NCBI GenBank assembly: GCA_008632985.1
Contig: QPGO01000040.1
Span: forward strand, 253,719 to 317,718
Reading direction: 5' to 3'
DNA: 64,000 nucleotides
From: Psammoneis japonica
Lineage: Eukaryota
Shown: positions 4,615 to 63,500 of the stretch, piece by piece
Numbering within the stretch: the stretch's first letter is position 1
Layout of the letters: every line of letters starts with the position of its first letter
Program-made: the position numbers and the translations under genes
The notes under the pieces: generated by a model
What the model was told of the DNA's origin: nothing
The model's input: the letters and a program-made list of their open reading frames with translations, nothing else
The model's database searches: none

Positions 4615-6410
4615 TACAGTAGAGATGGAATCAAGTGGTGGTGTGATTGGACCATCACATTGATGCAAGATTTTTTAAGAAGTGCAGTCGGCATGATGGA
4701 CGAAGCAATCCAAAAGATGCAAGGAAGTTGGGCAGATGGTCCTTTAACAAAGACTTTCTTTGTGAAAACTCAAAGCAGACTCTGGTTCAATGGCAGTGGC
4801 ATGTCATGTGTCCTGTTCACCTCAACAATGTCAAGAACACTTCTGATCTCCACATGTCACTTGCCAGATCACAAAACATTGAACTGTCACTCTCAGGACC
4901 AGACTTTCTCTTGTGTGTTGGAGCCACATCATCACCCAGTTTCACTTCATCTGGCTGGCACTTGTGCAGCTCCCTCCTTGGCTTCATCCTTCTGTGGGCT
5001 TGCTTTGCAACTTTGCTTCATGAGCAGCTTGCTTTGCATGACTCAGATGTGCTCACTCTGTGTTTCTTCTGTGACATGCCTGTTCTTCTTGGTCTGCACT
5101 TTAAACTCACTCTGTTTGGATGTTTCATCAAGGGGGGGGGGGGGGGGGNGGGGGGGGGAGAGCACATCTTGAGAGAAGGCTTTGGGAAAATTGTGCCAAC
5201 TGGTGTGTGGGGCACACCCACTTGAAGTCAGACAAGCTTTCTGGCTCTCCAACTTTGTCCCACTTTTTTCTCTCTGCTTTCCACAACAAGAAATTTGTTT
5301 TTGAGGATGAAATGCTGGCTTTTGAACACCACAGTGTTGCTGCATGAAACTGTTGGCTGGTGCTTGAAAAGGGGTGTTGGATGGAGAGCAGTGTGCACTG
5401 CTGCTTTTTGGCATCTGGCGCAGCTTTTGATGTGTCACAGCCTTCTGCAGATCATGAGCTCCCACTTGATTGCATTTTTGGGGCAAAAAGAGGTGAGAGA
5501 ATGTGACTTGTCAGCTGCTGGTTCCAGCTCCAGATGAAACAAAATTCGTCAAGCTTGATTTGCTGCATTGGCACGCAAGCAGCTCCTCCTTCAACTTTGT
5601 GTGTGCGCTCATCTTGCAACGTTGAAACTGGGGGGCTCCTGGGCCATTTGGCAGATCACATGCAAACATGCACCACCTGGAGCTGGAGCCAGAAACTGGT
5701 GCCTGCTGTTTGTGGGATGTTGTGGCTGCACAGCAGGTTTTCTGAGAACTTGGTTGGGGCTTGCCCCATCATCAGCGACAGCACTGTGTTGTCTGGGAAG
5801 AAGCGCAGGGAAATTCTTCATTTGCATTTTGTCATCCATGTGATGGTGGCTGGCTTCATCTTGTTGTCTTGATGTGTGAAAGATCAGAGCTGAAGTGGAG
5901 GGTGTGAGAGCCAAGAGTGCATGGTGGCCTTCTGTGCAGAGAGTCGCTGACAACACCTCCTGCGCACCATTTTCCCAGAGCTTTTTCTTGGCATCTGACA
6001 GAAAAAGGCAAGCAGCTCCTTGTGCATGTTGTCCTGAGGTGCAAAAGTGCAGAGAAAGAAACTTGCAGGTCATCAGGCTGGAGCTTTGTGGTGGCCACTG
6101 ACCCCCTCCCATCCTCATCAGCTTTGCTGTGTGTGTGCTCCTGCTGGGGCCCCTCCTCTGTCAACAAGTCAAAGGTGAGAAAGCAAGAAGAACAGTTTTT
6201 GACACAGCCAATCAATTTTGCCTCATCCCACTCATTGGCCATCTTCAAATCTCTTGTTGCAAGTTAACTCTCCAGAGGTTACAGAGAGGAAGGTGTTGGG
6301 ATGTGTTGTCATCCCAGGTGAGAGAACCGCGAATGAATGGGCCATGGCTGGGAAGGTCGGACATTCTGTCTGTCCTTCTTCCACCACTCTGTGCGTTTTT
6401 TGTCAGATGA
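4615..6410. mobile_element. TpA/CpG-depleted decayed repeat, family unidentified
   Basis: Abrupt compositional switch; the few surviving TA are mostly in TTA/TAA context; poly-G run at about 5132-5158; spurious Cys/His-rich ORFs on both strands. Confidence 0.5.
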
Positions 6411-6589
6411 AATAGAGGTATCCGCTCGCGCTCGCCGCTTCATTGTTCATATTGTGTGTAATTGAAGAGTGTTGGTAAGCCTCATGGTAGCCCTTATCCC
6501 ATAAGCACCGTCGCCTTTCGCATCGCCGTGTTTGAGTGTAATCACCTTAAGAGTATATCTGATAGAACAACAAACAACGCAACAACATC

Positions 6590-7426
6590 ATGAGTACGAA
6601 AACTACTGCTCAAAAGAACAAAGCTACTTCTGAACCAGCCGCAAAAAAACAAAAAACAGCAGCACCCACGTGGGAAGAATTTTTCTTCAAGTTGGTTTTG
6701 TACAAGCACAAGCACGGAACATTCATCATTTCGGCAGAGCAGCACCACATCAGTGATGACTACACTGCCTTGGCGGAATGGATCGAGCTTCAACAAAAAA
6801 AGTACAGTCGTGGAAAACTGACACAAGATCAAATTTCTGTCTTGAATGAAATTGGTTTTGTATGGAATTTCAAGGAACAAGAACAATGGCAAGAGCGATT
6901 CGAGGAATTGCTAGAGTACAAACAAGAGCATGGCGACACGTTGGTTCCCAGCAAGACGAGATTAGGAAAATGGGTCTGTGCGCAACGTGCCGCCAAGCAC
7001 AAAAAGGACACGGGCGATGGTGGTGATACGCACGAGAAAACGTCATCCAAGTCAAACAGTAATAGGAAACCCATCAAACCAATTACACAAGAACGCGAAG
7101 ACAAATTGAACAATATTGGCTTTGTTTGGAGAGTTCACAATAGCGACGGTTGGGACGCTCGGTTTCAGGAATTACGCGAATACAAGGAAACCTACGGCCA
7201 CACCCGCGTGCCGCAGCACTGGCCTGCCAATAAGTTCTTAGGCAAGTGGGTGGCGCGTCAACGCTATCAATACACATTTGTGCAACAAAACAAACCAAAT
7301 TGTTTGTCCCAGGAACGAATTGATTTGTTGAATTCGCTCAACTTTGATTGGGGGAAAGTCAGGCCAAGTGCAAGAAAAGAGGAGAATCGATACGATGCTC
7401 CCAACTCTCAAGGAAAAGCAAAGTGA
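6590..7426 (+). CDS. Helicase-associated (HA) domain repeat protein, 3 domains
   Basis: Repeats WEEFFFKLVLYKHKHG...LAEWIELQ...LNEIGFVW; WQERFEELLEYKQEHG...LGKWV...LNNIGFVW; WDARFQELREYKETYGH...LGKWVARQR...LNSLNFDW. Confidence 0.92.
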   Translation: MSTKTTAQKNKATSEPAAKKQKTAAPTWEEFFFKLVLYKHKHGTFIISAEQHHISDDYTALAEWIELQQKKYSRGKLTQDQISVLNEIGFVWNFKEQEQWQERFEELLEYKQEHGDTLVPSKTRLGKWVCAQRAAKHKKDTGDGGDTHEKTSSKSNSNRKPIKPITQEREDKLNNIGFVWRVHNSDGWDARFQELREYKETYGHTRVPQHWPANKFLGKWVARQRYQYTFVQQNKPNCLSQERIDLLNSLNFDWGKVRPSARKEENRYDAPNSQGKAK

Positions 7427-7760
7427 ATAGTGTCTTTTGGATAACAAGAATCAATGCGGCACTTCCAACATTCAAAGAAAAACAAAGTGAATCCATCTTA
7501 AGGTGAAAAAGTTATCTGTCTTTAAAAAGGTGATGGCATATTCTCTTACTCTCTCGGTGGTAATACCTTCGCCGCCACAGCCGTGCACTGCATGCTTGAA
7601 CCGCATTGCTTGTCATTCCAGAAATGCACGCTTCCTTGTCACTCGGCGTTAGTCCTGTGTCACGCAACCGGAAACGAACCACCAAGGCGTTATCGTCTCC
7701 ACTGACGTCTTGTACACGGCCCTTGCGCGTTTCAACGGCTTTGCCTCCGAGGGGCCAAGC
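7078..7760. repeat. Inverted segmental duplicate of about 13230-13915 (HA gene 3' part plus 3' end of the neighbouring secreted-protein gene)
   Basis: The reverse complement of 7600-7760 encodes DVSGDDNALVVRFRLRDTGLTPSDKEACISGMT, matching DVNGDGIDDLVVRFRLRDTGLTPNDTEACISGMT at 13280-13380. 7078-7400 matches 13580-13915 nearly base for base. Confidence 0.9.
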
Positions 7761-7859
7761 ACATGCCAGTGTCTTTTGGATGAAGAGAATCAATGTGACA
7801 CTTCCAACACTCAAACAAAAACAAACTAAATCTCTCTCTAAGGTGAAAAAGTTACTTGC

Positions 7860-10800
7860 ACCCTTGTTCCGTTTCCGCATTAGAAAGCCATTTCCCAAAC
7901 CACTGAAAAAAGTGCACGTGCCCAAAAATGCAAAGCAATCTCTTGGCATCCAAAAAGCTGCCCTTTGATGGAGGACCACTGTCTGAGAGACTTGATCTTT
8001 CCCAACAACATCAGCTCCAGTGCTTTGTGATGTGGGGGGTTTTGGTCCTTTGGAGAGAGCAACTCTTTCTGCAAACCAACGTGTTGAAGGGCATCACACT
8101 GCGCTGCCTGCTCCAACTCACAGGATTGAAACAAAAAAGAACATCGCTCAGTGCCAAGGCTGCTCTCCCAAAGCAACACACCAAACAGGCTCTCTGGCAC
8201 ATGATGTTTCACATGACAGCAAACAACGTGAAAGACACGTCTTTGTCAACAGACAATGAGTGCATAAAATCACCACAAGCCAAGGCACTTGACAGAGTGA
8301 TCGCTGGCCAGATGAGGCCAAAATGGCATTTGAGCAAACTCACCATGAGTTTGTCAGTTGCTGCATTGTGCATTGTCCTGTCAAGCCCACTCCAAATGAC
8401 TGAGCTCAGATGTGTCTCTGCTGAGTGGCAGCCATGGAGACTCGTTCATGAGCAGAGCAAAGCTGTGTGTGTGGTCAAAGTGTGGCACTCTTGTGCTTGC
8501 CCTGTCTTTGCTGCAGCCATTTGTTGAAAATTGAAAATCTTGTCATTCATCAATGGCAAATTGCCTTTTTTTACAAAGTTGACAATTTCAAAGTCCAAAA
8601 GGCAGCTTGGTTGTCCAAGTGACAAAGGAGCAAAATGTCGCAATGGACAAAGTGTGATTGCACATCATGTGTCAAAATGTAAAAACCAAATCATTGACAA
8701 GTTTTGTTGCTTTTCATTGCCAGAAGGCAATGCATTGGTTTTCCAAGATTTCTTCCCACTGCCAAAGGGAGAGCAAGAGCTTTGCCTCTGCTGCAACAAT
8801 TTGGGTGCCATTTTTGTGAAATGTGGCTTGCTTGCTTGTTTTGTTCTGTCATCCATGAGCCAGAAGAGCCTGACAGCTCCAACCTTGCAAGGCAAAGCAT
8901 GCTTTGAGCACTTCTCTTGAAGAGCTGGTCACACTTTCATGGTGTCAGGCTCTCTCACAACCAGCTTCTTGTTTCAAGGCAGAGGAGTGCACACTGGTCC
9001 AATGCTTTGGAAGTTGATTTCACATTTTGAGCTTGGCAAAGGCTTCTTGACAACACCTCAGGTGCCATTGGCTCTGTGCCCTGAACAAGCTTGGTGGACA
9101 CAACCACACCAAATCTCCAAAAAGCACAGGCCTGTGACCACTGCCACCCAGAAACTGAGTGGGTGAGGCACCCAAGACACGTGCAGTTACCCCGCTGAAC
9201 AATTTGAGATGGCATCTTTCCAAGGTGCCACATCAGAAGTTGTTTTGTGGGGCTCTTTTCTTGCAACACACTCACATTTTTGTTTTTTGTCTTTGGGGTG
9301 CATTGTTGGCCTCTGTGTTGCATCCCCAACAACCAACCCAAGCAAGTGACAACCACATCAGCAATTGTGTGCAACAAAAAAATGGTTGAGAGCAATGCAG
9401 CAGATGCCCGTGATGGTGCTGTTGATGGTTTGGCCATCATGGCTGTCCATGCTGAGGTTTTACAATGTGCTGCAGCTGTCACTTCCTCAATCTCCATTTT
9501 TTGCTGACCTGGAAACCCTTCTTGTGCATGTTGTTCTCAACTGCAGCCCAATGATGATGGGCTGGAGCAAAGCAGAGGACACACTGAGAGGACAACTCAC
9601 ATGTCAGCCAGGGCTGCCATCATTGCCTGACACACAGCTGACTTTCAGCAGCTTTCAAGGATCGTTGTTGGGTCTCAGAGTCAAAAAAAGTGTGGCAGTT
9701 GTGAGAAAGACAAGTGGAAGAACCACTCAAAAAAAGGCTTCAGGAATTGCAACAACAACTGCAGTGCCACTTGCAGAGTTTTTGAAAAGCTTTCTTGTTC
9801 CATTGTTTTTGTTTTGTGCTTTTAAATTCCACTCAAAACAAGAGGAGGGCAGTGCATGGATTGTTGTGCCATGGAAATGGCACTGCGTAAAGCCATTGGC
9901 TGGGTGTTTGAAAAAGCATGCTGGGTGGAGTGCAACATTGCCCTCTGGCATTTCTCCAGCACTCAGCTTTCTTTTGGTGTGATGTGTTGCAGCGCCTGCT
10001 GTGGGTCAGCTCCTGTGTGCTTGCTTGCATTTGTGGGGTGAAAGAGCAAGAGGGTCTGTGGCAGGCTGTGGCTTGTTTCAAAGATGAGCAAGGCAGGCAG
10101 CCAACTGAGCAGAGCAGCTGCTGTCCTCTTCGTTTTCTGATGAATTGACAGGCCTGCCATCACAGGCCTGTCATCAATGGCAACACAGTTGTGTGGTGTC
10201 TCAGGGCAAAAAGTGTGAGAAATTTTGTTGGTGTTTTGCCTGTGAGAGTGGGCACAGTCTGCTGTGACACCCAACATCATCGGTGTCTCCAGCCCAGTTG
10301 TCCCACCCACGGTGCTGTTTCGTCAATGGAGAAGAAAGGCAAGCTGCAATTGACTCTCCATTTGTGGCAAAAATGGTGTGGAGAAAGAAAGAAGCTTCCA
10401 GGTCATCTGGAGGTTTGTGGAGTGTGCTTTCCCCCCTCGTGCTGGCTTGCTGGCTCTCAGCACGGCCACTTTGTCGGGTTCAAGGCTTGAGAGCAGCGCC
10501 AACACAGAGGAGGAGGAGTCTTTTTTTGAGAGAGACAAAACTCGTTGACGTTTTGCCTCAGTTCACTTCTTGTTGGTCATCTCTTGTTGTGAGTTGACTC
10601 TTCAGGTTGCTGGAATGTGCACTTGAGTCAGTCTTTGCCACAGCACAGCTTCCGCGTCATTCTCCCAGGCAGCCCCCCCCCCCCCCCACAAAAAAAAGAA
10701 GAGGCCTTTGAGTCAAGTTTTTCCTTTGCAACAAAAAGATGGCAAGGAACGATGCTGCAATCAACAATGGCACCCCTGATGGCTTGATCATCATGGTTGA

Positions 10801-10900
10801 GAAAAAAAGAAAAAGAGGTGGGAAACTGTGGAGTCAGAGGTTCGTGAGAACAAAAACATCGATGCACGCCCGCTGCTGTGGGTTTTAGTCGGTAAACTGA
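7860..10900. mobile_element. TpA/CpG-depleted decayed repeat, family unidentified
   Basis: Very few TA or CG over 3 kb, strong TG/CA excess, poly-C at about 10673-10687; no recognisable domain. Confidence 0.5.
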
Positions 10901-11348
10901 CGTCATGTCGTGATGAAGGTGGCGTTTATCATGTATTGTGGAAGGCCGGTGATGCGTGATTCGCGCCACCTGAAGGTGCCGCGCACGAGTGAAATGAAGA
11001 ATTCAAAAAGCGCACCTCAAATAAACATTTATGGGTTTTTGTGTTCTCGTTCGAGGCTCTCGCAAGTTGGTGTTCTCTTTGTCTTTCTCACAAAAAAAAA
11101 CTTATGGGTAAGTGAATCGAAATGGCATCTGCGCAAGCACGACCCGCTCACATCATATGTCGATGGGGCTGGCATTTAGAAGACGGTGGGCTACGGGCTA
11201 CGGAATGGTCGATGACGTGCGAATTCTTTGTGCAATCGTCATTGTTGATTTCCTAACGTTGTTCCACTGAACTTATTTGATGTTTTAGATAAGAGCAACC
11301 GTCGTTTGCGACACACACGAGGAGAACACCAACAACAACCATCACAAG

Positions 11349-13441
11349 ATGAGCCCAATCCTACATTCGATTAGTGGTGTGCTAGTCTTCATTCTTTTGC
11401 AACCTCATTCTGCAGTCCAAGGAGCTGCAATGAGAGTACCAGGTGAAGCGCTACTGCAGAAGAGAAACCGTGAACTTGACAGCAAAAGCGATCAAGATCC
11501 GGTTCCACCGGTTTGTAACGAGAAGGAATCCATCCTGTTTGCAGATGATTTTAACTCGGGAACACTTTCAAGTGAATGGGTCCCAATAGTACCGCGTCAG
11601 TGGATCAAGGATGGCTGGATGCACACCAGAGGAGGTTTTGGCGGTCCCCGAGACTCTGGAGCCTTGGTTCATGATGGCGATTCGTCGTGGACGGACTACA
11701 CCGTCAGCCTTACTGCGGACTTTGTGAGGCCTGAAATCTGGAAGGACATCACCATTATTCTTCGTTCCGATGGCTTTTATCGAAGCTCCTATGGAAGTCG
11801 TGGTAACGGGTATGAAATCACCTTTGAGAACCTCTATGACGAAGAGGAAGTGCAATTCATTCGGTTTAGCCAACGCGGTCCACAAGACGAATTTTCTGCT
11901 GAAACACTGTTGCGAGTGCCGTTCCCGTCCCCCAAGAAGCCTTTTGATGTTGTCGCCTCGGTAATCGGACCGACCACCACGCTTTGGGTGAACGGCGTAT
12001 TGATCTTTCGTTTTACCGACCCCATGCCTCTTTTATATGGTGGCGTGGGAATCCACAGTACCTGGGAGGCAGAAAGCCGAATCGACAATATTGTCGTGTG
12101 CCGTCACATTACAAGTACTCCGCGTGATTTCGAAGTCAAAGTCGACATTCAACCTTACAGGAAAACCAACAGAATTAATCCAACGGAAAAGAAGCTTGCG
12201 GTTGCCATTCTTGGAAGCTCCTACTTTGACGCAAGTCTTGTGGATACAGAGTCCATACGATTCGGTCCTTCGGAAGCATTGATTGCAAAAGGCAAGACTC
12301 GGACAGAAGATGTCAATGAGGACGGTATAAACGATTTGGTCCTCATTTTCTGGCTCAAAGAAACGGGTCTGACAGTGGCAAGCACGGAAGCTTGTTTGAC
12401 AGGAGCAACGTCCAATGGCTCGAACATTCACGGTTGTGACAAGTTGAGCGGCATCCCGCCCCCGACGACGTGCGACGACAAGGACTCCATCCTTTTCGAG
12501 GATGACTTTGATTCGGGAGTGCTTTCAAGTGACTGGGTCGCCATTGAACCACGTCAGTGGATAAAAAATGGATGGTTACACACAAAGGGAGGTGTCCGTG
12601 GCCGTCCTCGAGACTCTGGACCTTGGTTCATGATGGTGATTCGTCCTGGAGGGACTACACTGTCAGTCTTACGGCTGATTTTGTGAGACCTGAACATTGG
12701 AAAGACACTACCATTATTCTTCGTTCCGACGGCTTTTATCGAAGCTCCAATGGAAGTCGTGGTAACGGGTATCAAATCACCTTTGAGAACCTCTATGATG
12801 AAGAGGAAGTGCAGTTCACTCGGTTTAGCCAACGCGGTCCACAAGCCGAGTTTGCTGCTGAAAAATTGTTGCGAATACCGTATCCGTCCCCAACAAAGCC
12901 CTTTCACGTTATCGCCTCTGCAATCGGTGATACAATCACACTTTGGGTGGATCGGACGTTGATTTTTAATTTTACAGACCCCGAACCTCTTTTATACGGC
13001 GGCGTTGGAATCCACAGCATCTGGGAGGCCGAGGCACGCATTGACAATGTCGTCGTGTGCCGGGAAACGAAACCAAGTCTTGTTGAATTGGAAATTGATA
13101 TCCAACCAAACAAGCATAACAAACGCATCCGACTTGATGGAATCGGGGAGAAAAAGAGGATTGGCGTTGCAATTCTGGGAAGCCCTGATTTTGACGCGAG
13201 TCGTCTTGTCAATGTCACCTCGGTACGCTTTGGCCCTTCAGAGGCAAAGCCGTTGAAACGCAAGAGCCGTGTAGAAGACGTCAATGGAGACGGTATAGAC
13301 GACTTGGTGGTCCGTTTCCGGTTGCGTGACACAGGACTGACGCCGAATGACACGGAAGCGTGCATTTCTGGAATGACAACCAGTGGTTCAAGCATACTAC
13401 AGGGCTGTGGCGACTTGAGGGTTTTGCTACCAAGAGAGTAA
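11349..13441 (+). CDS. Secreted protein with two tandem units of [ConA-like/DUF1080-like beta-sandwich + bacterial-type 'DIxP...VAIL...FGP...DVNxDG' domain]; one frameshift
   Basis: Signal-peptide-like N-terminus; internal duplication (about 11510-12440 vs 12470-13420). Copy 1 reads ctctggaGccttgg, copy 2 ctctggaccttgg (1-nt deletion at about 12620), which joins ORFs 11349-12686 and 12557-13441. Confidence 0.75.
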
Positions 13442-13559
13442 TAGAACTACCGTCACCTTTTCAGAGACAGATAATTTTTTCACCTTGAGATAGATTCACG
13501 TTGTTCTTCTTTGAGATTTGGAAGTGTCGCATGGATTCTCCTCATCCAAAAGACATGTT

Positions 13560-14560
13560 CATTTTCTTTTCCCCGAGCATGGGGAGAGCATCGTATCGAT
13601 TCTCCTCTTTTTTTGCACTCGGCCTGATTTCCCCCCAATCAAAGTTGAGCGAATTCAACAAATCAATTCGTTCCTGGGACAAATAATTCGGTTTGTTTTG
13701 TTGCACAAAGGTGTATTAATGTCGTTGTCGCGCCACCCATTTGCCTAAGAACTTATTCGCAGGCCAGTGCTGCGGCACGCGGGTGTGGCCGTAGGTTTCC
13801 TTGTATTCGCGTAATTCCTGAAACCGAGCGTCCCAACCGTCGCTATTGTGAACTCTCCAAACAAAGCCAATATTGTTCAATTTGTCTTCGCGTTCTTGTG
13901 TAATTGGTTTGATGTCGTTGTCGCGCCACCCACTTGCGCCCAAATACTTATTCTCGGGCCAGTTCTGTGGCACACAGGTGTGGCCGCAATACTCTAGGTT
14001 TCCTTGTATTCGCAAAATTCCTGAAACCGGGCATCCCATCCCGCTCGGCCGATGCATTTGAAATAAGGGCTTTGGTCCGTTTACCGAGCAAGCATTCGTT
14101 CCGTGGTGACACCTCGGCACTTCCTAGTAAAAGTCGCTCAATGTGAGTAACTCTTGAGCCGCTTTCCACACTCGTTCGTTTTGGCGGCGAGATTTGTTGT
14201 GCCTCGGGGGCGTAGTACGTTTCAGCGAACTCTGCGAGCAGATCAAGACCCACAGACTCTTTATCCTTCTCTGCCGATGAAGATATAGTATCAATAGCAG
14301 AGTCTGGAGCATCATCTTCATCAGACGAGAAAGGATCTAGTTCTGGGCAAAGATTCACGCTCGTCTTCGCCTCAAATCGCTCTTGCCATCGTTCTTCTTC
14401 TTGTTGTTCCTTGAGGTCCTTGAAACTCCATACAAAACCAATTTCATTCAAGACAGCGAAATTTGATCTTGTGTCAATTTGCCACGACTGTACGTTTTTC
14501 GTGGATGCTCGACCCAATCCGACAAGGCGGTGCTATATTCCATTCATTTGATTGATTCGT
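13560..14560 (-). pseudogene. Rearranged, frameshifted HA-domain paralog
   Basis: TALSDWVEHPRKTYSRGKLTQDQ / LNEIGFVWSFK...WQERFE, and KPITQEREDKLNNIGFVW...LGKWVARQR, in broken frames. Confidence 0.8.
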
Positions 14561-15557
14561 ACCTCGTATTAGCGGGATCGCAAAAGGCGCAGCCAACAAT
14601 CCATGCCGCCATGAAAGGTGTGTGCAACGATGCTTTCTCAACATCTTGTCAACGTGCAGCATCGATCGACACAATTATACGGATGGATTATATATCAAAA
14701 CGACTTGTATGGTTCAACGAATTGCGCGCAAGATGGCAATAAGGTATACCGACAACTCGAAGAAGTGGCGCAGTCGCGACAATGTAGCTTCACATGCCAA
14801 TATGAAAACAGAGAAAAGGAAGAAACAAAGGATAGGCCGACTGACTCGATGGAAGTGATCTGACGGTTTGTTGCTCTTTCACCATGTTCGTATGGAGCAG
14901 GGTCACAGGAGGAGGTGTGCCTATCAACTGTCAATATTTGGTCGCTTGATAGCGTTGTTCTCTTTCCACGTGCGATGTGGCTTTTTATATCGTCCGTCAC
15001 TTATTTGTTGAGTTTGCCGAGCCGAGAGTATGGAGTCATACAATTGTCAGACATGCGCTGGTCGAGAACATTGTACCAATCCGTGAGGCGTTTGGCACAG
15101 ATTTCATTTGGGACTCGTATCCTTGCTGTTTCGCTCTCTTCAACATAATATCGTATACGTTTTCATTCTGTTCCAACTTGACCCGCTGCTCTGAACCTGC
15201 ACGCTCTGACGCTTTGTAGTTAACGGATGCAAATAATTTTGAGTGATCGATTCCATTTCGTCAATCTTTTCAGGAGCAAAATTGCCTCCAACCTCACTTC
15301 TAGGTCTGTTCTTGGGCGCTACTTCGGTGGGGACCATGCACGTAAGAGCAACGCACCCTTTGGTAGTGGAGTCACTTTTGGAGCTTGTCCAACGGACAAT
15401 CGGCTCCGAGAAAGACATGACCGACCCCCACCTTACGCTTCTATATGGAGCATCTCATGAGACTTGTGATTTTAAACCAAGAGGTGTCTCGAATTGTATG
15501 CAACCACCTTGCATGTGAGCAAAAGACATGATTAAATAAGCCATCGTTTCAACAACT

Positions 15558-16469: not shown

Positions 16470-16473
16470 GTTT

Positions 16474-46650: not shown

Positions 46651-46690
46651 AGTCTAGCCTGCTATTTCCCAAATTCGAGTTTTCTGGCTT

Positions 46691-52732: not shown

Positions 52733-53229
52733 CCTTACGTGGTATTAAAAAAACTACCTGCTTCCTTTTTCTTCGCATTCCTCGGCATAGTAGAGGGACA
52801 ACCATTTTTTCCTCAGTCTATCTTCAAGCAGCAAACGCAAACCAACACTCTGCGATCCTGCTTGAGCCACGCCTGCATTCGTTGCGTTAACGGTTTTATC
52901 CCGATATATCTCATATTATGATGAATCCAGATTTCCGACCGTTATCTTTAAGGGCACTTGACAGACCGCCTCACAATTTCCGAGATAGAGCGAGGAGTCA
53001 TGCCGGTTGCCGGTGCCAGAGGATTGTGCTGGACCCACCGCTGTACGGTGCCGTCACTCTAGCAGCTCGCCGTTCCATTCCGTTCAAGCCCATGCATCCA
53101 TGTCCTCTCAGAACACTAAAACGCGACAGTCCGTGTTGCTCCTGCCGCCCTGCTTTCAGCGATCTTTCCCAAAGGACTCTTCAAAATGCAACAATGGCGA
53201 CACACCAATGCGTTGATTTGAAGAGAAAG

Positions 53230-53620
53230 GTGGTGACAACATGATGGATTTCTGCCAATTGAGAGCAAAAAATCTGCCCAGCTCACAAAAGAAGGCACCA
53301 GAGCCATCCAGAGCAACCCCGCTCAGCCTTGCCACTCAAACGTTCACCCAGCTGCATCCACTCCATTGTGTTGGCATCAAATTGGAAGAAAATTGCTTGA
53401 CCCACATCTTCCAATCCACCAGCATCATGCCAGCTGCTGCCCACCACCGCCAACACCTGGCATTTTCTCCATTCAAAGACACAGAACAACCAAAACTGTC
53501 ACCCCCTTGTTGTGCAGCAAGGGTCTGACCACGTTGTTGTGTCCACGTTGACACTGCACAATCATGCACATGAACCAAGACCAGATTGCTGGTCACAAAC
53601 TTGTTCTTGCACTCCATTTT
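53230..53620 (-). pseudogene. FG-GAP/beta-propeller repeat gene remnant, TpA-depleted
   Basis: WTQQRGQTLAAQQGGDSFGCSVSLNG and VLAVVG...GQAIFFQF...WMQLGERLSG in adjacent frames. Confidence 0.6.
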
Positions 53621-56159
53621 TCATTTCTTCTGCTTCAGCCTGACGGGATTTGAGCAAGATTTTAGCTCATCACACACAATTGCACATGCTCTCAGTTCCG
53701 CGTGCAGTGCACAATGTGGCTTGCTTTCAAGCCACTCGGCTCACAAGATCAACAACAGTGGCGCCGACATCACGACAACAGTCTTTCGGCTCCTGCAACG
53801 GCGTCTGCACAGAGACTCATCTGCTGTTTAGACAGCAGCAAGGAGTTGTTTTTTTCTTCCACCCAGTCATCTTCATTTTCTGTCAGATTGACAATCTTGC
53901 TCACAATCAACCATTGAGCGTTCATCATCGTCATCGAGAAAAATTCAACAACGTGCATTGTTGGCGTTGGAAGAACACACCTGCGTTCTAAAATGCTGAA
54001 TGTTGGATTGAATCTACATGTTTGCATTGATCCAACACCTCTCACCGCTGGATGTTTTTGTTCAACGGACATTTGCTTGATCAGGAATTCCCCTGCATTC
54101 TCAGACATTTGTGATTCTGGATTCCCTGCAGCAGATTTTACCCTGGTTGGCAGACAGAACAATCCATCGGCACGCATTCACGCACACATGATGTAACTCT
54201 CTGACTCTGGCCCTGCTTCGTGCACGCCAAGTCCACTGCTGCCCATCTGCACCGGATTGCTGGTCTTCTGCAGTTCTACAAGGTCCCTGAGGACGACTGT
54301 GAGAGGAAGCAATTCGTGATCACAATCTGCATTGGGGCGAGGGTGCATTTCCCACATTTGTTCATCCCATTTCCCACATTTGTTCGTCCCTCCACAGTGC
54401 CAATTTGGCCGGCCTGATCGGGGTCATCCAACTGACATAAAATGAGAATGGTTCAGAGGTCTTGTCCACCTCCAGTCAGCTTGTCAGCAGGGGTTTTTGA
54501 CCCATCACCCCACTCTCAGGCAACCCAAAGAGTGCAGTCAGCTGCGGGTGCGGACGTGCCTGCACAACTCTGCGGACCGGATGGGAAGCTCAGCAATCAA
54601 CCACAAACAGGATGTCACAGCCCAGCGGCTGCTGATTTGCAAGGCAGTCAAGATTTCAAGTCAAGATCTCAAGTCAAGTTTCAAGTCATTTCAAGCTCAA
54701 CCTTCACCTTTGGTTCCGACACCCACTCAGTTGCACCATGGTTCTCACCAGGTGGCAACAAACCAATGGCTTCGAGCACATCCCTGGCACTGTTCTAAAA
54801 CAGGGTGCAGACAGTCCATTGCACTCCGCCCTCAGCATTGATGGCGCTGACTCCCACCAGGATCTCTTCACTTTTACCACGACGCAACTGGACACCCTGG
54901 TTTGCATGGACGGCACCAATCAAACGCCTTTGCCATGTGGCTGCAAAGCACAGACAGCTGCATTGATTGGTTTGCACATGGCAAAAGTGCACAGCAGTGC
55001 TGATGTCAGCAACAACCCCAACTTGTTCACCCATGAGGAGTTTGCCGACTGTCGTCCCGAGCACACAGCGTCCCTCTCCATGGGCGAGGCGCCATCTGCT
55101 CCCACTCCTGGTTCACTGCCCCCAAAACCACATGACCCCATGTGTGACTTTAAACAAGGCTTGAAGCGTGACCCACTCACCTTTGCAACTCTTAAGTCCA
55201 ACAAACAGTGGCACACGTGGCACACATCTGTCGTCGCACAGGCCCGCTCCCAGGATGTCGACTGCATTCTCGACCCGACGTGCAAGCCCTCTGCGGCCCA
55301 AGACAAGGCCCGGTTTGCCAAACAACAGAAGTGCATGTTCGCTGTGTTTGAATGCATCTTGCAAAATGACAAAGGCAAGGCACTCATTTGCAAACATGTC
55401 AGCTCCTCTGATGCCCAAACAGTGCATCGCAAACTTTCTGAGTGTGCTCTTGCATCCACTCGTGCCTCCCTGGAGTCCGCAACTCTTCTCACGTGCCTCG
55501 CCATCGCTCGTCTTGGTGATGGCACCTGGAAAGGCTCCACCCATGCCTTCATGCTTTGTTGGCAGGACCAACTTTGCAAGTGCGAAGCTCTCATTCGGAC
55601 ATGCTCGAGTGGTGCAAGCATGACATCAATGGTCGCTCCATCAAAGTCCCCATCAACATCAAAGGCAGCTCACCCTGCATTGCCATGTGCCCACAGACTG
55701 ATGCCGAGTGGGACGACTTGCCACATGTCATCCTCACTGGTGACGACACCTGGGATCTGTCTGTGCTCAACCACCAGTTCGCTGATGACGACACCTGGCG
55801 CAACACCATCTCCGACCTCCAGGACGACCCTGCCACCACTCTCTTTGATGAGTTTGGCAACTGTCATCATTGCCATGTCATGAACAATGCAATGCTTGCG
55901 GACCACCCTCTTGACAACCACATCCTGCTGATGTCTGATTTCTTCTGCGAGTGCCATGCTGAACGTGACATCAAGCCACAGGCTGGGAACCTGACTGCGA
56001 GTTGTTGCGCCCTCACTTTGGCTTCCTCCCAAAGGGCACCATCTGCCACACATTCAATTTCACGACCCAGCATGCCCACATGCCAGCCAGCATGCACTTG
56101 AAAAAGGCACACAAGTCACCCAACCCAGCTCTCAACATCCATCACCACAATGAACCTGT

Positions 56160-56560
56160 GACGCGTTCCAGCTCTAGGTGGGACCTCGCACTGCTGAACT
56201 GTGACACAATTGTTTTTCATCATCCGTCGTGTGTTTTTCACGCACATTTCCACGTGTTCCATTATAAAAAATTGTTCCACACTGCCTGTTTTGTGGCGCG
56301 AAGCCAAAGGCTTTCTGTCATTTGCATTCATGTCAACAAAAATGCGCTGGGTGTGTTCTTCAATGTCTGAAGAACACACCCGGGCACACTGCAAAGAATG
56401 TGCTTCAAGTGTGGAGGAGGAGATGCGTTCGCAAAATTGCCTCTTTTTCTGTTGGCAATCATCCATGTGTCCATTGCTCAACAATTTTACTGCGGAGCTC
56501 GCGTGCAGAATTCTGCGGGCCCAATGTCACAAAAAGTCCCACCTGGGGCTGGAACCCGTC
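56160..56560. mobile_element. MITE with 25-bp TIRs and 4-bp TSD (CTGT), inserted in Copia integrase
   Basis: gacgcgttccagctctaggtgggac ... gtcccacctggggctggaacccgtc; CTGT at 56156-56159 and 56561-56564; removal restores NEPVATDTV. Confidence 0.9.
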
Positions 56561-56781
56561 CTGTTGCCACTGACACTGTCTGCTCTGACACTCCCACTGT
56601 TGACTCCGGATGCATCAGTGCCCAGCTTTTTGTTGGCATGGAGTCTCTCATCACCAATGTGTGCGGCACCAAGACTGACAAAGAATTTGTCAACACCCTT
56701 GAAGACAACACTCGCAACCGCGGTGCTCCACTCAAACTCACCAGCGATCGTGCCCAAGTCAAAATCAGCAACAAGGTGCTT

Positions 56782-57228
56782 TGCAACACACAGCTGCCAA
56801 CAAGAGTCAATGCATCACGGCGACGTGTTGCAGTCTTTAAATGTCACAAAGGGCGTGACAAAAACAACCTTTTGTCTGCATGCATGCTGCACCATGAATT
56901 CACAGCGGAGTGGTTCATCTCGCAACCATTGGGCAGGAGGCCAGGGGTTCGAAACCCGAGTGGGAGTTGTCTGCAGCAACGTTGATCACTGTCCAACGCG
57001 TAAAACTCTGTGCAGTTCTGTGTGTTCCTCGCACGCACCCACACTGTTCTGCCAAAACCGTGCAGTGTCAGTGCACGTTGGCAAAGAGCCGCATGGACGC
57101 GTGACACATGGGGAGGAGTGCAACACACAGCTGCTGACAAGAGTCAATGCATCACGGCGACGTGTCACAGCCTTTAAATGTCACAAAGGGCGTGACAAAA
57201 ATGACCTTTTGTCTGCATGCATGCTGCA
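56782..57228 (+). mobile_element. TRIM-like element: 110-bp LTRs (56782-56891, 57119-57228), 4-bp TSD GCTT
   Basis: TG...CA direct repeats; purine tract ggggaggag before the right LTR; removal restores ISNKVLGILRTLF. Confidence 0.88.
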
Positions 57229-59275
57229 GCTTGGCATTCTCCGCACCCTCTTCATCTCCAGCTGGCAAAGCGAGCCTCACCAACAGCACCAGAACTTTGC
57301 TGAACGTTGCTGCCAAACCATCAAGAACATGTCCAACACCATCATGGATTGCTTTGGCTCACCGGCTTGCACGTGGCTTCTTGCCCTTGTGTGCATGTGT
57401 TTTCTGCTGAATCACACCACTTCTGCCAAGCTCCACTGGCGCACCCCGACTGAGGCACTGACCGGATCTGCTCCCAACATCAGCCCCCTCCTCCATTTTC
57501 ACTAGTGGGAACCACCCGGTGCACTGCCATTTGGACGACTCCGACTGGCCCTCCGAATCCCGTGAACTGCGTGGCAGCTTCGTTGGCATCGCTGAACACG
57601 TTGGCCACCACATGACCTTCAAGATTCTTTCTGATGACACCCAGAAGATTTGTTGCCAGTCGAATGTACGTTCTGCTGCCGGCATGCCCTTGATGCACAA
57701 CTTGCGTCTTGATCCTCCTGATGGGGAGACTGCTGCACCCATCATCAAATCCTGCCACGACTCTGAAGATCCGCCAGATTCATCAGATGGGGAGAAGATC
57801 AGGATGCCCAAGATGCCAGTCTTCAACCCCGAGGATGTCGTCAGACTTGCCTTCCTCATGAAGCCACAAGAGAGTGGACAGCACTGCCAAGCTTGCATCA
57901 TCAAAGCCATTGAAGACCACAACTGGGAGATTGGCAACAACCCGGAGCTTGTCCAGTTCATCTGCTCCATCAACAACAATGAGCATGAAGAAGTCCTTGC
58001 CTGCAATGACATCATCAACCACACAGAGCAAGAGGAAGATGACACTGCTGTGTGGAAATTTTGATGCATTGTGTCACATGAAGGACCGTTGAGGCCTCAC
58101 GACCCCTCATGGAAAGGCTCGAGCTACAATGTGATGCTCAAGTGGGAAAGTGGGGAGATCACGTCTGAGCCCCTGGCCATCATTGCCAAGGACAACCCTG
58201 CAACACCTGCGCCATCCATGCACGCGAACATGGCCTTCTCAAAACCGATGGATGGAAGTGCTTGCGGAAGACAGCTCTGCGCCAGAAGAAGCCATTTCGC
58301 ATGGCCAACCAAGCCAAGCTTTGCTCCTTTCATGCGGCCCCACACTGCAAGTGTGGATGCAAAGTGCCCCGTGACCACAGGCGTGCTCTTGCTCTTGATG
58401 AGCACAATGGCAATCACAAGTGGGGAGATGCAACGGACCTTGAGATGAATCAACTCAACAAGCACAGGGTCTTCCATGACTGCGGGCACTGCAAGGAATC
58501 CAGTGCGCTGCCAGCCAGGACACAAGAAGATCCGCGTGCACTTGGTTTGTGACGTGAAGCACAACGGCAGACACAAGGCACGTCTCGTTGCCAGCGGGCA
58601 TCTCACTGACACACCCGTCAACAGTGTGTGATCCGGTGCAGTGTCTCCACATGGCCTTCAAACGATGATCTTCCTGGCTGAACTCAACGAGCTGGAGAGA
58701 CATGGGCTGCCAATGTTGGCAATGCCCCTCTGGAAGCTGCAACCAAGGAGAAGCTGCACATCATCGCGGGCCCCAAATTTGGTGATCTCAAAGGACACAT
58801 CCTTGCAATTCACAAGGCCCCATGCAGTCTCCACAGTTCTGGCCTCAGGTGGCACGAATGTTTCGCCGATTGTCTGCAAGCTGAGGGATTCTTCCCCTGC
58901 CGTGCTGAACCCGACATCTGGTTCCATCAAAATGGTGATCACTGCAAGCTCACGGCAGTGCATGTGGACAATTTGGCCTTCACCATGAAGGACCCGCAGA
59001 CATTTGTTGACACTCTCATGGAGAAGTGCAAGTTCAAGCTAAAAGGAACTGGCTCTCTGCAGCTTCACCTTGGCTGTGACTTCTGCCATGACTCTGATGG
59101 CACGCTTTGCATGGCCCCTTGCAAGCACATCAAACATGTGGTCGAGAATTGGGCACGACTGTTTGGGGAGAAGCCCTGCACCAACACATTGTCAACACTC
59201 GAGAAAGGAGACCATCCCAAGCCAGACACCTCCGAACTGTCAGGACCCGAAGGTGTTCAACACTTCCAGTCGCTC

Positions 59276-60006
59276 TGACAGGATTTAAACAAGATTGACC
59301 AACTCGATTAAATCCGACCCATCAACCTGAAAAATTGCGACACCCAGGAATCGAACCTAGGTCCTCTAATGACCGGTTACCGACTAAACCATTTGCCGCA
59401 TTCTTCAAACTGACAGGCTTTTTGTACACAGTCACACATGTTTCAGCCAGAGAGTGACATGCACCTTTAATTCTTCTTAGAATTCTGTCACTCCCCACAT
59501 GTCACGAAGCTGTCTGACGTCACGAAGCTGTCTGACGTTCCTTTCTTTGGACAATGACACTTCTCACAGCTCCCCTTCTACCTGGGCCACATTTTTCTGC
59601 ACATGTCATGACCTCCCCGGCGAGCTGGCAATTGGGCGACCATTCCGGCCTCGGCACCCCTGATGAGAGCACTGTGTGCATCGTCGGTCTGTCTCACCGC
59701 AGCCTCTCCTCAGTTTTAGAGTCATCTTGAAGGAGCACACACACCTGGGTTCAAATCATCAACGGTCCTCGCATCATGACAGGGTGCACCATGACAGGAT
59801 TTAAACAAGATTGGCCAACTCGATTAAATCCGACCCATCAACCTGAAAAATTGCGACACCCAGGAATCGAACCCAGGTCCTCCAATGACCGGTTGCCGAC
59901 TGGACCATTTGCCGCACTCTTCAAACTGACAGGCTTTTTGTGCACAGCCACACATGTCTCAGCCAGAGAGTGACGTGCACCTTCAATTCTTCTTAGAATT
60001 CTGTCA
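59276..60006 (-). mobile_element. TRIM with 215-bp LTRs (59276-59490, 59792-60006) containing a tRNA-like sequence
   Basis: TGACA...TGTCA ends; TSD cgctc/ctctc; minus-strand PBS-like TGGTGCACCC and PPT-like GGGGAG; removal restores QSLIGSLQW. Confidence 0.9.
59336..59399 (-). ncRNA. tRNA-like Pol III unit in LTR (second copy at 59852-59915)
   Basis: A box TGGTTTAGTCGG, B box GGTTCGATTCC, acceptor stem GCGGCA/TGTCGC, followed by TTTTT; anticodon arm shortened. Confidence 0.7.
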
Positions 60007-60589
60007 CTCTCATTGGGTCTTTGCAGTGGGCCGCATCCCTTGGGTGCATTGACATCACCACAGTCGTCATGTTCCTGTCCAGCTTCCGATCCGCACCCCA
60101 TCAAAGCCATTTGGACCATGCCAAGCATGTCGAGGTTTCCTGTCTGAGATGTGACATGGTGTCTTGCAAGTGCACACCAAGTGACCCGACTGTTTGGACC
60201 TTCACAAGCCTGTGTGCAACTGGGCTCAAATTGTGCACGGCAGTGTGAAGGAACTGATCCCAGAAGACGCGCCTGAGCCCCTTGGCAAATTCGTCACCAC
60301 CGCACATTGTGTTGGTGCGAACTTGTTTCACTGCAGGCTCACTGGGTGCTCCATCATGGGCATTCTTGATGTCCTCAACAAGTTCCTGGCTGACTGGCTC
60401 TTCAAGAAACAAGCTGCAGTTGAGACCGCAACTTGTGGGTCTGAATTTGTTGCTGCCACCAGGACTTGTGCAGAGCAAATCATTGATCTGCGCACCATGC
60501 TGCGTCACCTTGGGGCTCTGATTTGTGACCAATGTCACATGTTCGGGGACAACAAGTTGGTTGTTGACAGCACCACCATCCCACACTCT

Positions 60590-63500
60590 AAAAAAAACCC
60601 AGCCCAATTTAAAGTGCCGCCGCACCTTTGCCCAGCAACACCGGCGCCGGCCAACCCACACCTCCAGCACACTTGACTTGCAAGTGCGGCAGAAGTGGAT
60701 GCGACCAGCCTGAAACGGTGCCTCCCGGAGGAGACGCCCGACGGAAATAACTGGCAATGGTGCGTGTGCCACGACGCGCCAGTTTCCTGGCTTCCTTCAA
60801 ACTTTCTTTTAATCGGGGACGAACCGCAGCGATCCAATTCTGAATTCGAGCCGTTGTGAACGTCTTGTGTTCTTCCACTGAATCAAGAAGGGCTGCTCAA
60901 TCTTTCGCAAGGTGCTCTTGTTGTTTGTCACATGTTGCGGTCAGTTCTGCTTCTGCCATTCACCGTTGGGATGACTTGCGTGAATCCGCATCGTGGCCAT
61001 GCACAAATGCATTGTGTTCCTCCCACAGTTCCCACCATTGTCTCCAGATGAATGACCCGATCTGTGCCATCCAATCTGGTGGATGCTTGTCTTCAGCTTC
61101 ACATTGGCGAAGGACACCCGAATCCCGCAAATGTCCCGACTGAATCAGGTTCCACAAAGTTGAACAGCGGCCACTAAAAATCTGTCTCCAACCAATGTCT
61201 GATTGCGCGCGCCACAGCTCCCGACAGCGGCAATCGACATCGTCCGTGCAAATGATCTCTTCGTTAAACCAGGCTTGAAGAGAATTGATGAGGAAGTCTC
61301 GTAGAGTTGGCATTGCATCGATGTGGTCGCAATGTTTCCGAAGGCCTTGTGGAAACTTCCGGCGCCATGCTTCGTTTTCTGGACATCGAAGGATGTGATC
61401 CCTGTCTTCCACAGGATGCTCACACTCAAGGCAGTGATGAGGACGAACCGGATTGTGCCGGTGTGTTGTCTTGTTGGCAGGAAGGAGATCGTGTGCGAGT
61501 TTCACCGTGCCAACGTGTTGCTTGGAATGACGCTTGATCAAAACTGCGTGGGCATCCCAGTTCACGAGGTCAACAACCTCTCGTCGCCATTGATTGCGCT
61601 CGACTGTGTGCTCCAACAGCTGGGGAGCAGCAGCTGCATTTCGAAGCTGTTGCTTGCAACCAGAGGTCAAGGTGCCGTCTGCAAGCAACAAGTGAGAATG
61701 GCAGTGAGGAAACGGGAGAACACGTGATGTGTCCCAATCACAGCGACCTTGACAGGCGCCAGCAAGTCGATCCGCTCTGATGTTCACTCTTGCATTTGGG
61801 GGAAGTGAGCCAACAGGAGCGTGCTTGTCTTGATGCCCCTTTGCCCACTTGATCGACATGTTTTCCGGATCTTGCAATTGTTGAAACACATGCAATGTCT
61901 CGTCAATGACATCCCAATCCGAGGACAGCGCATTGGCTCCGTGGTGTCGTAAATAAAAATCACGTGAATCGTGAGAAGAGTCTTCTGGATTTGGAGCGGG
62001 AAGGGTGAGAGCAAGCTTCTTGAGACAGGACACAAGCGACTTGTTGTCACAATGAATGTCCAATGTCTTGTTCAATCTGGAATGGTGACATGCAACACAT
62101 CGGCAGATAAAACGAAGAATGGAAAGGACACCGCAAGCCTCTGCACGGTGCGACGATGGTTCATGCCCGAAACTGGTCCTGCACAATCTACGAGGGGAAC
62201 CCCTTGGAGTGTGATCGACCACCCAAAGGCAGCGCCTTCGTTGACAGATCCATCACTTCCCGCGACAAGTGCAGAAGAGTCGAAGTGTTGAACCAAGAGA
62301 AGGGGGGAAACATGGAAATCTAGTTCCGCAAACAGCTGAGATTCCCATTGAGGGAGTGATTTCAGCATGTCTTGAAAAGAATCTGGAGCACTCGGTGCGA
62401 TTGCAGGGGCCACCGTCGTTCTTGGGATGCTGAATTGCCATCTTCCGTCTTCTGTCGTAGTGACGTCTGCTGGGTGTGATTCATCGGTTGGCGCTGGTGC
62501 CACCTCGATCTCTCCAATGGATGCCGCTCTCGTTCCGTCGACCAAGAAGATCTCAAACCCTGACGGGCCCTTGACGTGTGGGCAATTTTCTGAGGAAGAA
62601 CAACAAGCTGACGCCTGCATGCGCATCTGCGATGGAGGAACTGGCCAGTCTCCCAGTGGTTCCTTTGAACGAATTGTGGAGGCATGGCACAGGGTTTTGC
62701 AAAATTTCTTCCACACTGACCAGGCCCGAGCATTCGGCTTGTGTTGTTCAACATTGTTCAACGCACTCACACTGCTCCGAATCGAGGGGTCACCATTTGC
62801 CTTGGTTTCATCCAAATGTGTGCCATCCGCTGGGGTCATGTCGGAGACTGCAAGCACACGAAGGAACAATCGGCAACAATCAATCCATCGGATTTCTCTG
62901 TGACTGAACTGTTGTGATCGAAGCACAACATCCACAACAAATTGGTCGTTGTCACGTTGAAGGGGCAGAATGCCATTGTGTGTCAGACAGACTTTGCCCT
63001 TGATTCCATGCAGAAACGAGCGAACTGAAGCGAACCAACACGATTCAAGGTGTGGCAACGGAGTGTCGACGTCCCATGAGAAGCTGTCACCTGTGCCCAA
63101 GTTCAGCTGTGTCCATGCGATTGCGACATGAAACAGTTTGTGAGGTTGATCCTCTCCGAGATGCAGATTCTCGACTCCCCGGGAATGTTTCAGCAATTGC
63201 TGCAATTGGGCCACACCCTGCTCTGCGTCAAGGGATCTAAAACCTCCTCCACCGAGTGCTTGGGGACCGTGTAGAATGAGTCGTTTGGTGTTGCGGTTGT
63301 AACCACATTTGGCAAATGTCACTCTCATCGCCTTCTGCTGAACTTTCTGGAGCTCTTTGTCCTGAAAATTAGAATTCGGCAACANNNNNNNNNNNNNNNN
63401 NNNNNNNNNNNNNNNNNNNNNNNNNNNNNNNNNNNNNNNNNNNNNNNNNNNNNNNNNNNNNNNNNNNNNNNNNNNNNNNNNNNNNNNNNNNNNNNNNNNN

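Follow-up and report, generated by a model that had tools for sequence, protein, structure and literature searches.

The 64,000-nucleotide stretch of Psammoneis japonica DNA analysed here (the window; contig QPGO01000040.1 of assembly GCA_008632985.1, positions 253,719 to 317,718 of the forward strand) contains gene islands and transposon-derived blocks, and nearly every TpA dinucleotide has disappeared from the blocks. The gene islands (about 1–4.7, 10.9–16.5 and 42.0–53.1 kb, together with 6265–7881) encode intron-poor genes for a ubiquitin-activating enzyme E1 and for HA-domain, R2K ATP-grasp, EF-hand, lysine methyltransferase and STAND NTPase proteins. The E1 gene (493–3498, + strand), which is normal in TpA and served as the host control, is an uninterrupted open reading frame (ORF) of 1,002 codons. 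Its best named matches are all from diatoms (42–48% identity), followed by oomycetes, and in a quick tree it fell among the diatom sequences, forming a long branch next to P0099, which is itself long-branched; it may be a second, rapidly evolving paralogue of E1.

Pfam matches and homology identified a long interspersed nuclear element (LINE; RVT_1), a Crypton-like element (NDC10_II), a Helitron and a Copia element (RVT_2) among the blocks, several of which have no recognisable domain. At the left end, an unclassified repeat without a Pfam match (block 1, 4746–6264) contains a single TpA in 1,519 bp, located in a TTAA, and has a CpG observed/expected ratio (o/e) of about 0.15. It is followed by an unaffected host insert (6265–7881, + strand), used as an internal negative control, that carries an HA-domain gene (6566–7423), is a segmental duplicate of island DNA and has a TpA o/e of 0.2–0.7, and then by a second unclassified repeat (block 2, 7882–10885) with seven TpA in 3,004 bp, all in TAA or TTA, and a CpG o/e of 0.11–0.44. 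The LINE-like non-long-terminal-repeat retroelement (16500–23104, – strand) comprises the RVT_1 ORF (17277–19856) and an upstream ORF (20201–23104) that holds a 411-bp tandem duplication. It is followed by the Crypton-like element (23300–28010, – strand; NDC10_II ORF at 25870–26508), which is TpA-depleted except for a repeated 14-bp palindrome built of TTAA, and by unclassified depleted DNA (28011–35000; TpA o/e 0.1–0.25, CpG o/e 0.66–1.13). The Helitron (35655–40966, + strand) has DUF6570, Helitron_like_N and PIF1 helicase domains in three ORF pieces. Beyond an N gap (40977–41704) lies a TpA-poor tail (41705–42034) that stops about 380 bp before a Cu/Zn superoxide dismutase-like ORF at 42418. 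On the right, depleted DNA (53118–54737) begins 374 bp from the end of the STAND NTPase gene (52744) and leads to the degenerate body of a Copia-type long-terminal-repeat retroelement (54738–60592, + strand), recognised by an RVT_2 match and polyprotein homology. A further depleted element with long ORFs (60963–63382, – strand) gave as its sole match a faint RNase H (E = 0.24). The four element classes named in an earlier reading of the bare letters (hereafter the sequence-only reading) were thus recovered, and the SET protein that it also listed was found only as a weak match at 29410–30252 (E = 0.042).

Profiles of dinucleotide o/e in 1-kb and 250-bp windows resolved two kinds of DNA. The whole-window values were 0.31 for TA, 1.38 for TG, 1.42 for CA and 0.77 for CG. 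The gene islands showed a TpA o/e of about 0.45–0.75 with CpG near 1, and the remaining DNA a TpA o/e of 0.02–0.25 with TpG and CpA at 1.4–2.0. For statistics, islands were pooled from 1–4500, 11000–16900 and 42600–53100 (20,902 bases), and blocks from 4746–6264, 7882–10885, 17300–40976 and 53118–63384 (38,466 non-N bases). The pooled islands contained 788 TpA (o/e 0.555) and the pooled blocks 294 (o/e 0.133; chi-square 682, p = 2e-150). All 49 runs of at least 250 bp free of TA (two of which cross N gaps) lay within 4746–10885, 17679–42034 or 53118–63807, and the islands contained none. The longest run extended for 1,162 bp (TpA in the islands are on average 26.5 bp apart) and would have a probability of 4e-20 at the island TpA frequency. 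The borders of the blocks were sharp: the TA-normal segment 6265–7881 is sandwiched by two nearly TA-free blocks, and the limits of depletion at 42034 and 53118 each lie about 400 bp or less from a host gene. Island DNA between ORFs had a TpA o/e of about 0.4–0.9.

The loss of TA was balanced by gains in its transition products. From islands to blocks the frequency of TA fell from 0.0377 to 0.0076 (–0.030) and that of CG from 0.0573 to 0.0426 (–0.015), and TG and CA each rose from 0.0721 to 0.0933 (+0.021), so that the sum of the pyrimidine–purine (Y-R) dinucleotides stayed at 0.2393 in islands and 0.2369 in blocks, as expected from transitions at Y-R steps. The GC content was 0.519 in blocks against 0.479 in islands, and the o/e of ApA/TpT was not lowered in the blocks. 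Among the stop triplets, TAA decreased from 8.4 to 3.3 per kb and TAG from 7.9 to 2.1, with TGA unchanged. This erasure of TAA and TAG accounts for the long ORFs found in several frames and on both strands of the blocks, in which gene callers would over-predict. In 14 transposon ORFs (6,519 residues) tyrosine (Tyr) made up 0.3%, cysteine (Cys) 4.4% and histidine (His) 4.5% of the residues, versus 2.8%, 1.9% and 2.9% in seven host ORFs (3,709 residues).

The direction of the change was approached through alignment columns with Tyr in at least 60% of the homologs (33 for the LINE, 46 for the Helitron and 28 for Copia). The seven such columns of the LINE now contain one Tyr, three Cys, two His and one phenylalanine (Phe); the 13 of the Helitron, one Tyr, eight Cys, three His and one Phe; and the 41 of Copia, one Tyr, 17 Cys, nine His and 14 other residues. 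Altogether 61 columns retain three Tyr and show 28 Cys, 14 His, seven Phe and nine other residues. All 61 were checked in the DNA, and 42 of the codons read TGY or CAY (22 TGC, six TGT, 11 CAC, three CAT). Conserved columns other than Tyr, summed from the alignment tables, were kept at 84% in the LINE, 84% in the Helitron and 69% in Copia. The host E1, though itself divergent, kept Tyr in 18 of 21 conserved columns, and the difference in Tyr retention (3/61 versus 18/21) was significant (Fisher p = 2.6e-12). The reverse-transcriptase active site of Copia reads AVHVDNL in the window and AVYVDDL in the 28 homologs. The Helitron and Copia showed further excesses of I>T/M/V, V>A, L>P and T>A, as expected from NTA codons and from junctions between codons ending in T and beginning with A. 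This exchange of Tyr for Cys or His blurs transposon homology, and the Pfam matches obtained here were weak or absent.

Duplicated sequences within the window gave a second indication. Five pairs within blocks (1,053 aligned bp) contained ten doublets with TG in one copy and CA in the other, and five pairs in islands (2,133 bp) contained one. The simplest origin of such a doublet is an ancestral TA that changed once in each copy independently, which indicates that the process continued after the duplications until both copies were fully converted. Both products were found on the coding strand, in a DNA transposon as well as in the retroelements, and the effect extended to non-coding blocks. 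Replacement by Cys exceeded that by His (28 versus 14), but the sense-strand TG/CA ratios were 0.84, 0.84 and 1.03, and no asymmetry with respect to transcription is claimed. The homologs and duplicates together support the view that the elements lost TpA by mutational decay (TAY>TGY or CAY) and did not lack it ancestrally. The sequence-only reading had made much the same case: blocks stripped of most TpA with sharp borders against islands of normal Tyr content, conserved Tyr turned into Cys or His in unrelated elements (including YVDD to HVDN in Copia), TAY decay leaving both products on the coding strand, and an argument against reverse-transcriptase error or RNA editing from the involvement of DNA transposons. 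The sliding-window profiles that it had proposed as a check, the Tyr columns, the doublets, the Helitron and the non-coding blocks all bear it out.

The loss of TpA depended on the flanking bases. The retention ratio (TpA density for each flanking context in blocks, normalised to islands) was 0 for ATAT, 0.02 for ATAC/GTAT, 0.06 for ATAG/CTAT, 0.06 for GTAC, 0.13 for ATAA/TTAT, 0.19 for CTAC/GTAG, 0.25 for GTAA/TTAC, 0.30 for CTAG, 0.38 for CTAA/TTAG and 1.22 for TTAA. No ATAT was present in 38.5 kb of blocks, where about 114 would be expected at the island density (62 in 20.9 kb). A model with four parameters, in which the two strands are attacked independently and the single neighbour sets one factor per strand, reproduced the ten 4-mer retentions with r = 0.97. 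All eight TpA surviving in the two most depleted blocks were in TAA or TTA contexts. Thus, a four-base context modulates the loss, and TTAA is largely spared. Conserved lysine, asparagine and Phe columns, summed over the LINE, Helitron and Copia tables, were kept in 154 of 199 cases, which together with the undepleted ApA/TpT speaks against a drive from A:T to G:C in general as well as against a process of the WA type (W, A or T).

Some of the elements have peculiarities of their own. On the + strand of the LINE block (16500–23100) purines make up 65–78% of the bases, with a GC skew of about 0.39 and an AT skew of 0.3–0.4. The pyrimidine-rich sense strand seems to be a trait of the family, to judge from homologous LINE proteins that are also rich in leucine, proline, threonine and alanine. 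The window copy differs from its homologs in serine (14.9% versus 7.2%) and threonine (3.8% versus 9.2%). The residual TpA of the LINE is mostly in GTAG/CTAC, and its depletion is milder because the purine-rich strand puts its TpA mostly in the less susceptible GTAG.

In the Crypton-like region (24240–28010) the 14-bp palindrome GTTTTAATTAAAAC and its near variants gave 38 strand-wise matches with at most two mismatches, as compared with 0.66 expected from shuffles. Thirty-six of these lie in the 3.8-kb region, corresponding to about 18 sites, each matching on both strands, which are grouped by two or three at the boundaries of ORF segments. The palindrome is built only of the resistant contexts TTAA and TAAA, which may be a reason for its survival.

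The Copia body contains a 735-bp insertion (59276–60010) between polyprotein residues that match 1584 and 1589 of homolog P0308, bounded at both ends by 218-bp direct repeats. All 12 differences between the two repeats are A/T in the first copy and G/C in the second, and at least six of them are TA versus CA or TG. One of the Copia homologs is labelled Fistulifera solaris.

A second mutational signature is present in the same DNA. The CpG o/e fell to 0.11–0.15 at 5–6 kb and 8–10 kb and to 0.4–0.6 in Copia, where 27 of 59 conserved arginine columns had changed in the manner of CpG decay (13 R>C, ten R>H, four R>Q) and D>N and E>K were also seen. At 28–35 kb, CpG was near normal (o/e 0.66–1.13) while TpA was at 0.1–0.25, so that the two losses are separable. 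Hence, ordinary methyl-CpG decay runs in parallel in some, not all, of the affected elements and feeds the same TpG and CpA pools. That CpG decay supplies part of the excess of TpG and CpA had been overlooked in the sequence-only reading.

What is hit and what is spared was then compared within the window. Duplicated host segments of 270–700 bp and 82–91% identity had normal TpA. Segmental duplicates around the HA-domain gene (3625–4175, 6763–7854 and 13230–14532; 81–96% identity over 85–696 bp) were likewise not depleted, and one of them, about 10% diverged, is lodged between two transposon blocks. The STAND/AAA_16 NTPase gene (49592–52744; 1,051 codons), present at 2.5–3.7 times single-copy depth with diverged contig variants and hence a member of a small gene family, also had normal TpA. 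Since such host duplicates and a multi-copy gene are spared, duplication alone is not the trigger, and the term repeat-targeted, used earlier in the sense of fungal repeat-induced point mutation (RIP), has to be given up. The survival of the 1.6-kb host segment 6265–7881 between nearly TA-free blocks shows that the process is not regional, and TpA in inter-ORF island DNA that low TpA is not reached neutrally throughout the genome. Therefore, something marks transposons as such, and the mark is not visible in the sequence. In contigs of a public run that contains the window, the islands were covered at a word depth of about 55 with 0–4 differences per piece, and 53.6–63.4 kb at a summed depth of 180 to about 80,000 in 7,408 pieces, which means that the islands are single-copy and these families highly repeated. 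No RNA run was among the public runs listed as containing the window.

The same signature was found elsewhere. Metagenome contigs yielded 80 helicase loci when scanned with an alignment, and in two of the 30 whose composition was examined (L003 and L007) the TpA o/e was 0.02 and 0.05, while TpG and CpA were high; the CpG o/e was 0.31 in L003 (1–5838) and 0.14 in L007 (1–2786), and Tyr was replaced by Cys or His in these environmental Helitron loci. L003 has an uninterrupted Helitron helicase ORF of 778 residues that keeps none of ten conserved Tyr (four Cys, three His, three Phe), while its unmutated relatives L002 and L001 keep eight of ten; the other conserved columns were kept at 93%, 93% and 87% in L003, L002 and L001, respectively. 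The loss of every Tyr from a frame otherwise intact implies that TpA was mutated at a rate far above background decay, and L003 and L007 show that the signature extends beyond this assembly. In five predicted Helitron proteins from public sets (P0270, P0249, P0291, P0214 and P0208) Tyr made up 0.3–1.5% of the residues and conserved Tyr was replaced by Cys or His; these are evidently hypermutated copies annotated as proteins. A search of metagenome contigs with the Helitron protein of the window alone gave no match. At the DNA level the best matches to the 80 loci were 74–89% identical over 53–207 bp, none near enough for polarisation of nucleotide changes, and a scan of viral contigs with the 503-residue ORF at 30481–31989 returned no locus.

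These results show that a DNA-level, context-specific process turned almost all TpA of the transposon-derived DNA in the window into TpG or CpA, that is, A:T into G:C on either strand. A similar process was recently reported from Bigelowiella natans, in which integrated giant-virus and virophage DNA undergoes TpA>TpG/CpA hypermutation (Mettrop et al., bioRxiv 10.64898/2026.01.13.699255). According to the accessible text of that preprint, two viral regions mutated about 1000-fold faster than the remaining genome in some of the mutation-accumulation lines; A>G and T>C made up 230 of the 231 single-nucleotide changes in these regions, all at TpA. The authors propose a DNA adenine deaminase similar to ADAT2, citing reported ADAT2 DNA editing in amphioxus. 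We consider it probable that P. japonica has the same targeted hypermutation, carried to saturation across LINE, Copia, Helitron, Crypton-like and unclassified elements with a four-base context and alongside CpG decay. Most likely, chromatin or small RNA identifies chromosomal transposon copies as foreign, and a base-modifying enzyme acts on the copies so marked. The leading candidate would be a TadA/ADAT2-like adenine deaminase that acts on transiently single-stranded DNA and converts A to inosine, which is read as G. The net effect is an irreversible inactivation of the elements through replacement of catalytic and structural Tyr by Cys or His. Within this reading, the deaminase is put forward tentatively, oxidation of thymine appears rather unlikely, and some other chemistry is unlikely.

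Several points weigh against this interpretation. The deaminase is a guess, and the symmetry between strands lets a modification of thymine fit the same data. We infer action on resident chromosomal copies rather than on transposition intermediates. The direction of change is drawn from protein homologs and in-window duplicates. The TTAA ratio of 1.22 is inflated, as 26 of the 61 TTAA belong to the repeated palindrome of one motif-rich element; when that element is left out, 35 remain in 33.8 kb (1.04 per kb versus 1.58 in islands), still the best-kept context, and the two most depleted blocks carry just 0.33–0.66 TTAA per kb. At the Tyr codons, the numbers of Cys and His products were 4 and 1 after A, 9 and 9 after G, 12 and 2 after C, and 3 and 2 after T, a distribution that fits cleanly neither a pure 3′-neighbour nor a pure 5′-neighbour model. 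The public runs containing the window are three rows from one sample and study, possibly the sample of the assembly itself, and so not independent. At the variable places of their contigs A>G (290), T>C (322), G>A (327) and C>T (360) were similarly frequent, which is in agreement with the doublets and gives no direction alone.

TpA being self-complementary, a lesion on the T side accounts for all of the results equally well: a TET/JBP-type dioxygenase could produce 5-hydroxymethyluracil (5hmU) or 5-formyluracil at transposon TpA, and mispairing with G or faulty repair would give T>C. It is known that 5-formyluracil mispairs with G. In the dinoflagellate Amphidinium carterae, which belongs to the stramenopile–alveolate–rhizarian (SAR) lineage, 5hmU made by a TET/JBP enzyme is enriched in transposons, which it marks and silences, yet the accessible passages of that paper report neither TpA specificity nor a mutational consequence (PMC11572971), and the B. 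natans authors favour the ADAT2-like deaminase. For diatoms, nothing on 5hmU or TET/JBP was met with in the literature consulted. Targeting as above with thymine as the damaged base is thus regarded as unlikely, though worth keeping in mind. Another question is when the copies are hit. APOBEC3 mutates retroviral cDNA, and TpA could in the same manner be attacked before integration, on cDNA, single-stranded Helitron circles or excised circles, which would explain why the boundaries are confined to elements, why a host segment inside a block is untouched and why the summed word depth reaches about 80,000 when single-copy DNA is at about 55. Nevertheless, four element classes with differing intermediates and non-coding blocks share one two-strand pattern, copies whose catalytic Tyr and YVDD motif had been destroyed could not have transposed autonomously after mutation, and internal duplicates diverged by doublets after duplication. 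Since, moreover, resident integrated DNA mutates in place in the B. natans mutation-accumulation lines, as far as described in the accessible text (bioRxiv 10.64898/2026.01.13.699255), attack before integration is considered improbable.

Targeting itself could be dispensed with if a genome-wide TpA>TpG/CpA bias lowered TpA in all unconstrained DNA and selection kept genes normal. The islands are themselves at a TpA o/e of about 0.55, and dead transposons are the least constrained DNA. This is very improbable in view of the inter-ORF island DNA (o/e 0.4–0.9), of the duplicated host segment that has diverged by about 10% inside a transposon block and is undepleted, and of L003, which loses every conserved Tyr and keeps 93% of other conserved columns and an open frame. 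A-to-I editing of transposon transcripts by an ADAR- or ADAT-type enzyme, fixed by reverse transcription, would give A>G with an upstream U, resembling editing preferences cited in the accessible part of the B. natans preprint. However, depletion is as severe in the Helitron, the Crypton-like element and the non-coding blocks as in the retroelements, and both TG and CA occur on the sense strand (28 Cys versus 14 His; TG/CA 0.84–1.03). ADARs prefer a 3′-G, unlike the process seen here, in which TAT and TAC were lost most, and editing at the RNA level is hardly credible. As UpA avoidance is widespread in expressed RNAs and the ORFs of the blocks remain long, TpA might also be thought to be avoided adaptively or ancestrally, whether by codon usage or by evasion of RNA decay or of a nuclease aimed at TA, or to be missing by an artefact of assembly. 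Against this, conserved and catalytic Tyr are replaced (YVDD>HVDN), the ORFs are long in all frames through the erasure of TAA and TAG, non-coding blocks are TA-free, and the TG/CA doublets imply an ancestral TA. In addition, the signature recurs in unrelated metagenome contigs, and the islands match run contigs with 0–4 differences per piece, which makes this explanation just as hard to credit. Error-prone repair of the DNA polymerase eta type, for which the WA motif implies that ApA is targeted as well as TpA, had been among the candidate mechanisms (WA>WG) of the sequence-only reading and is disfavoured, because the blocks show no loss of ApA and a different preference for flanking bases.

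Going beyond the window, it is conceivable, and suggested here tentatively, that TpA-directed A:T>G:C editing of DNA is an old defence shared within SAR by rhizarians and stramenopiles, perhaps linked to thymine modification in dinoflagellates, in which a base-modifying enzyme reading a four-base context (ATAT best, TTAA refractory) would act on any foreign DNA, integrated viruses and all classes of transposon alike, and reach saturation in diatoms. If true, the enzyme and its guide could be sought in diatoms, which are genetically tractable. Diatoms, an ecologically dominant lineage, would be the second in which a eukaryotic genome is defended by turning A:T into G:C at TpA. Such a defence would be the mirror image of RIP and APOBEC editing, and the process would extend from viral inserts to every transposon class. 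The four-base context, the independence from CpG decay and the lack of a simple duplication trigger are specifics that can be tested, and a natural A>G editor of DNA with tight sequence specificity would be of interest for base-editing work.

Among known systems, fungal RIP converts C to T, chiefly CpA to TpA, thereby creating TpA, and is triggered by duplication. The process in P. japonica shares with it a heavy, irreversible transition mutagenesis of mobile or repeated DNA, sharp borders and the loss of coding capacity; unlike RIP, it depletes TpA about four-fold, leaves a higher GC in the blocks (0.519 vs 0.479) and lets duplicated host segments escape. The decay of 5-methylcytosine at CpG gives the same TpG and CpA products and is present in these elements, but cannot remove TpA. 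The TadA/ADAT2 adenine deaminases, natural (editors of A34 in tRNA) and engineered, have the A>I(G) chemistry and a 5′ U/T beside the target and are a plausible enzyme class, although the flanking preference found here is not known to match that of any characterised enzyme.

Full-text literature searches yielded no report of TpA>TpG/CpA hypermutation besides the B. natans preprint, and none for diatoms, diatom transposon papers included. The window satisfies the cluster definition given in the accessible text of that preprint (TpA ≤0.43 and CpA+TpG ≥1.52 in at least three consecutive windows; bioRxiv 10.64898/2026.01.13.699255) at 8001–11000 and 53001–59000. In B. natans, too, TpA-depleted coding sequences are enriched in reverse-transcriptase and DDE domains, and these, with TpA-poor, CpA+TpG-rich clusters throughout the genome, suggest a wider reach than viral DNA. 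As far as the preprint can be compared, both systems have TpA as the target, TpG and CpA as products, an A:T>G:C direction against the usual bias and a restriction to foreign DNA. They differ in that B. natans is a rhizarian with viral inserts and P. japonica a diatom, hence a stramenopile, with transposons of at least four classes. Depletion is near saturation here (o/e 0.02–0.25), as compared with 0.45 in the giant-virus region and no depletion in the virophage region of B. natans. The mutation rate was measured directly in B. natans and the process is known here from sequence comparison alone. Finally, a four-base context was defined here, and the words trinucleotide, context and TTAA do not occur in the main text of the preprint, figures and supplements aside. 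The sequence-only reading had supposed a mutator not yet described; by analogy with B. natans, it is, as it appears, of the same kind in another lineage, a kind just described rather than wholly new.

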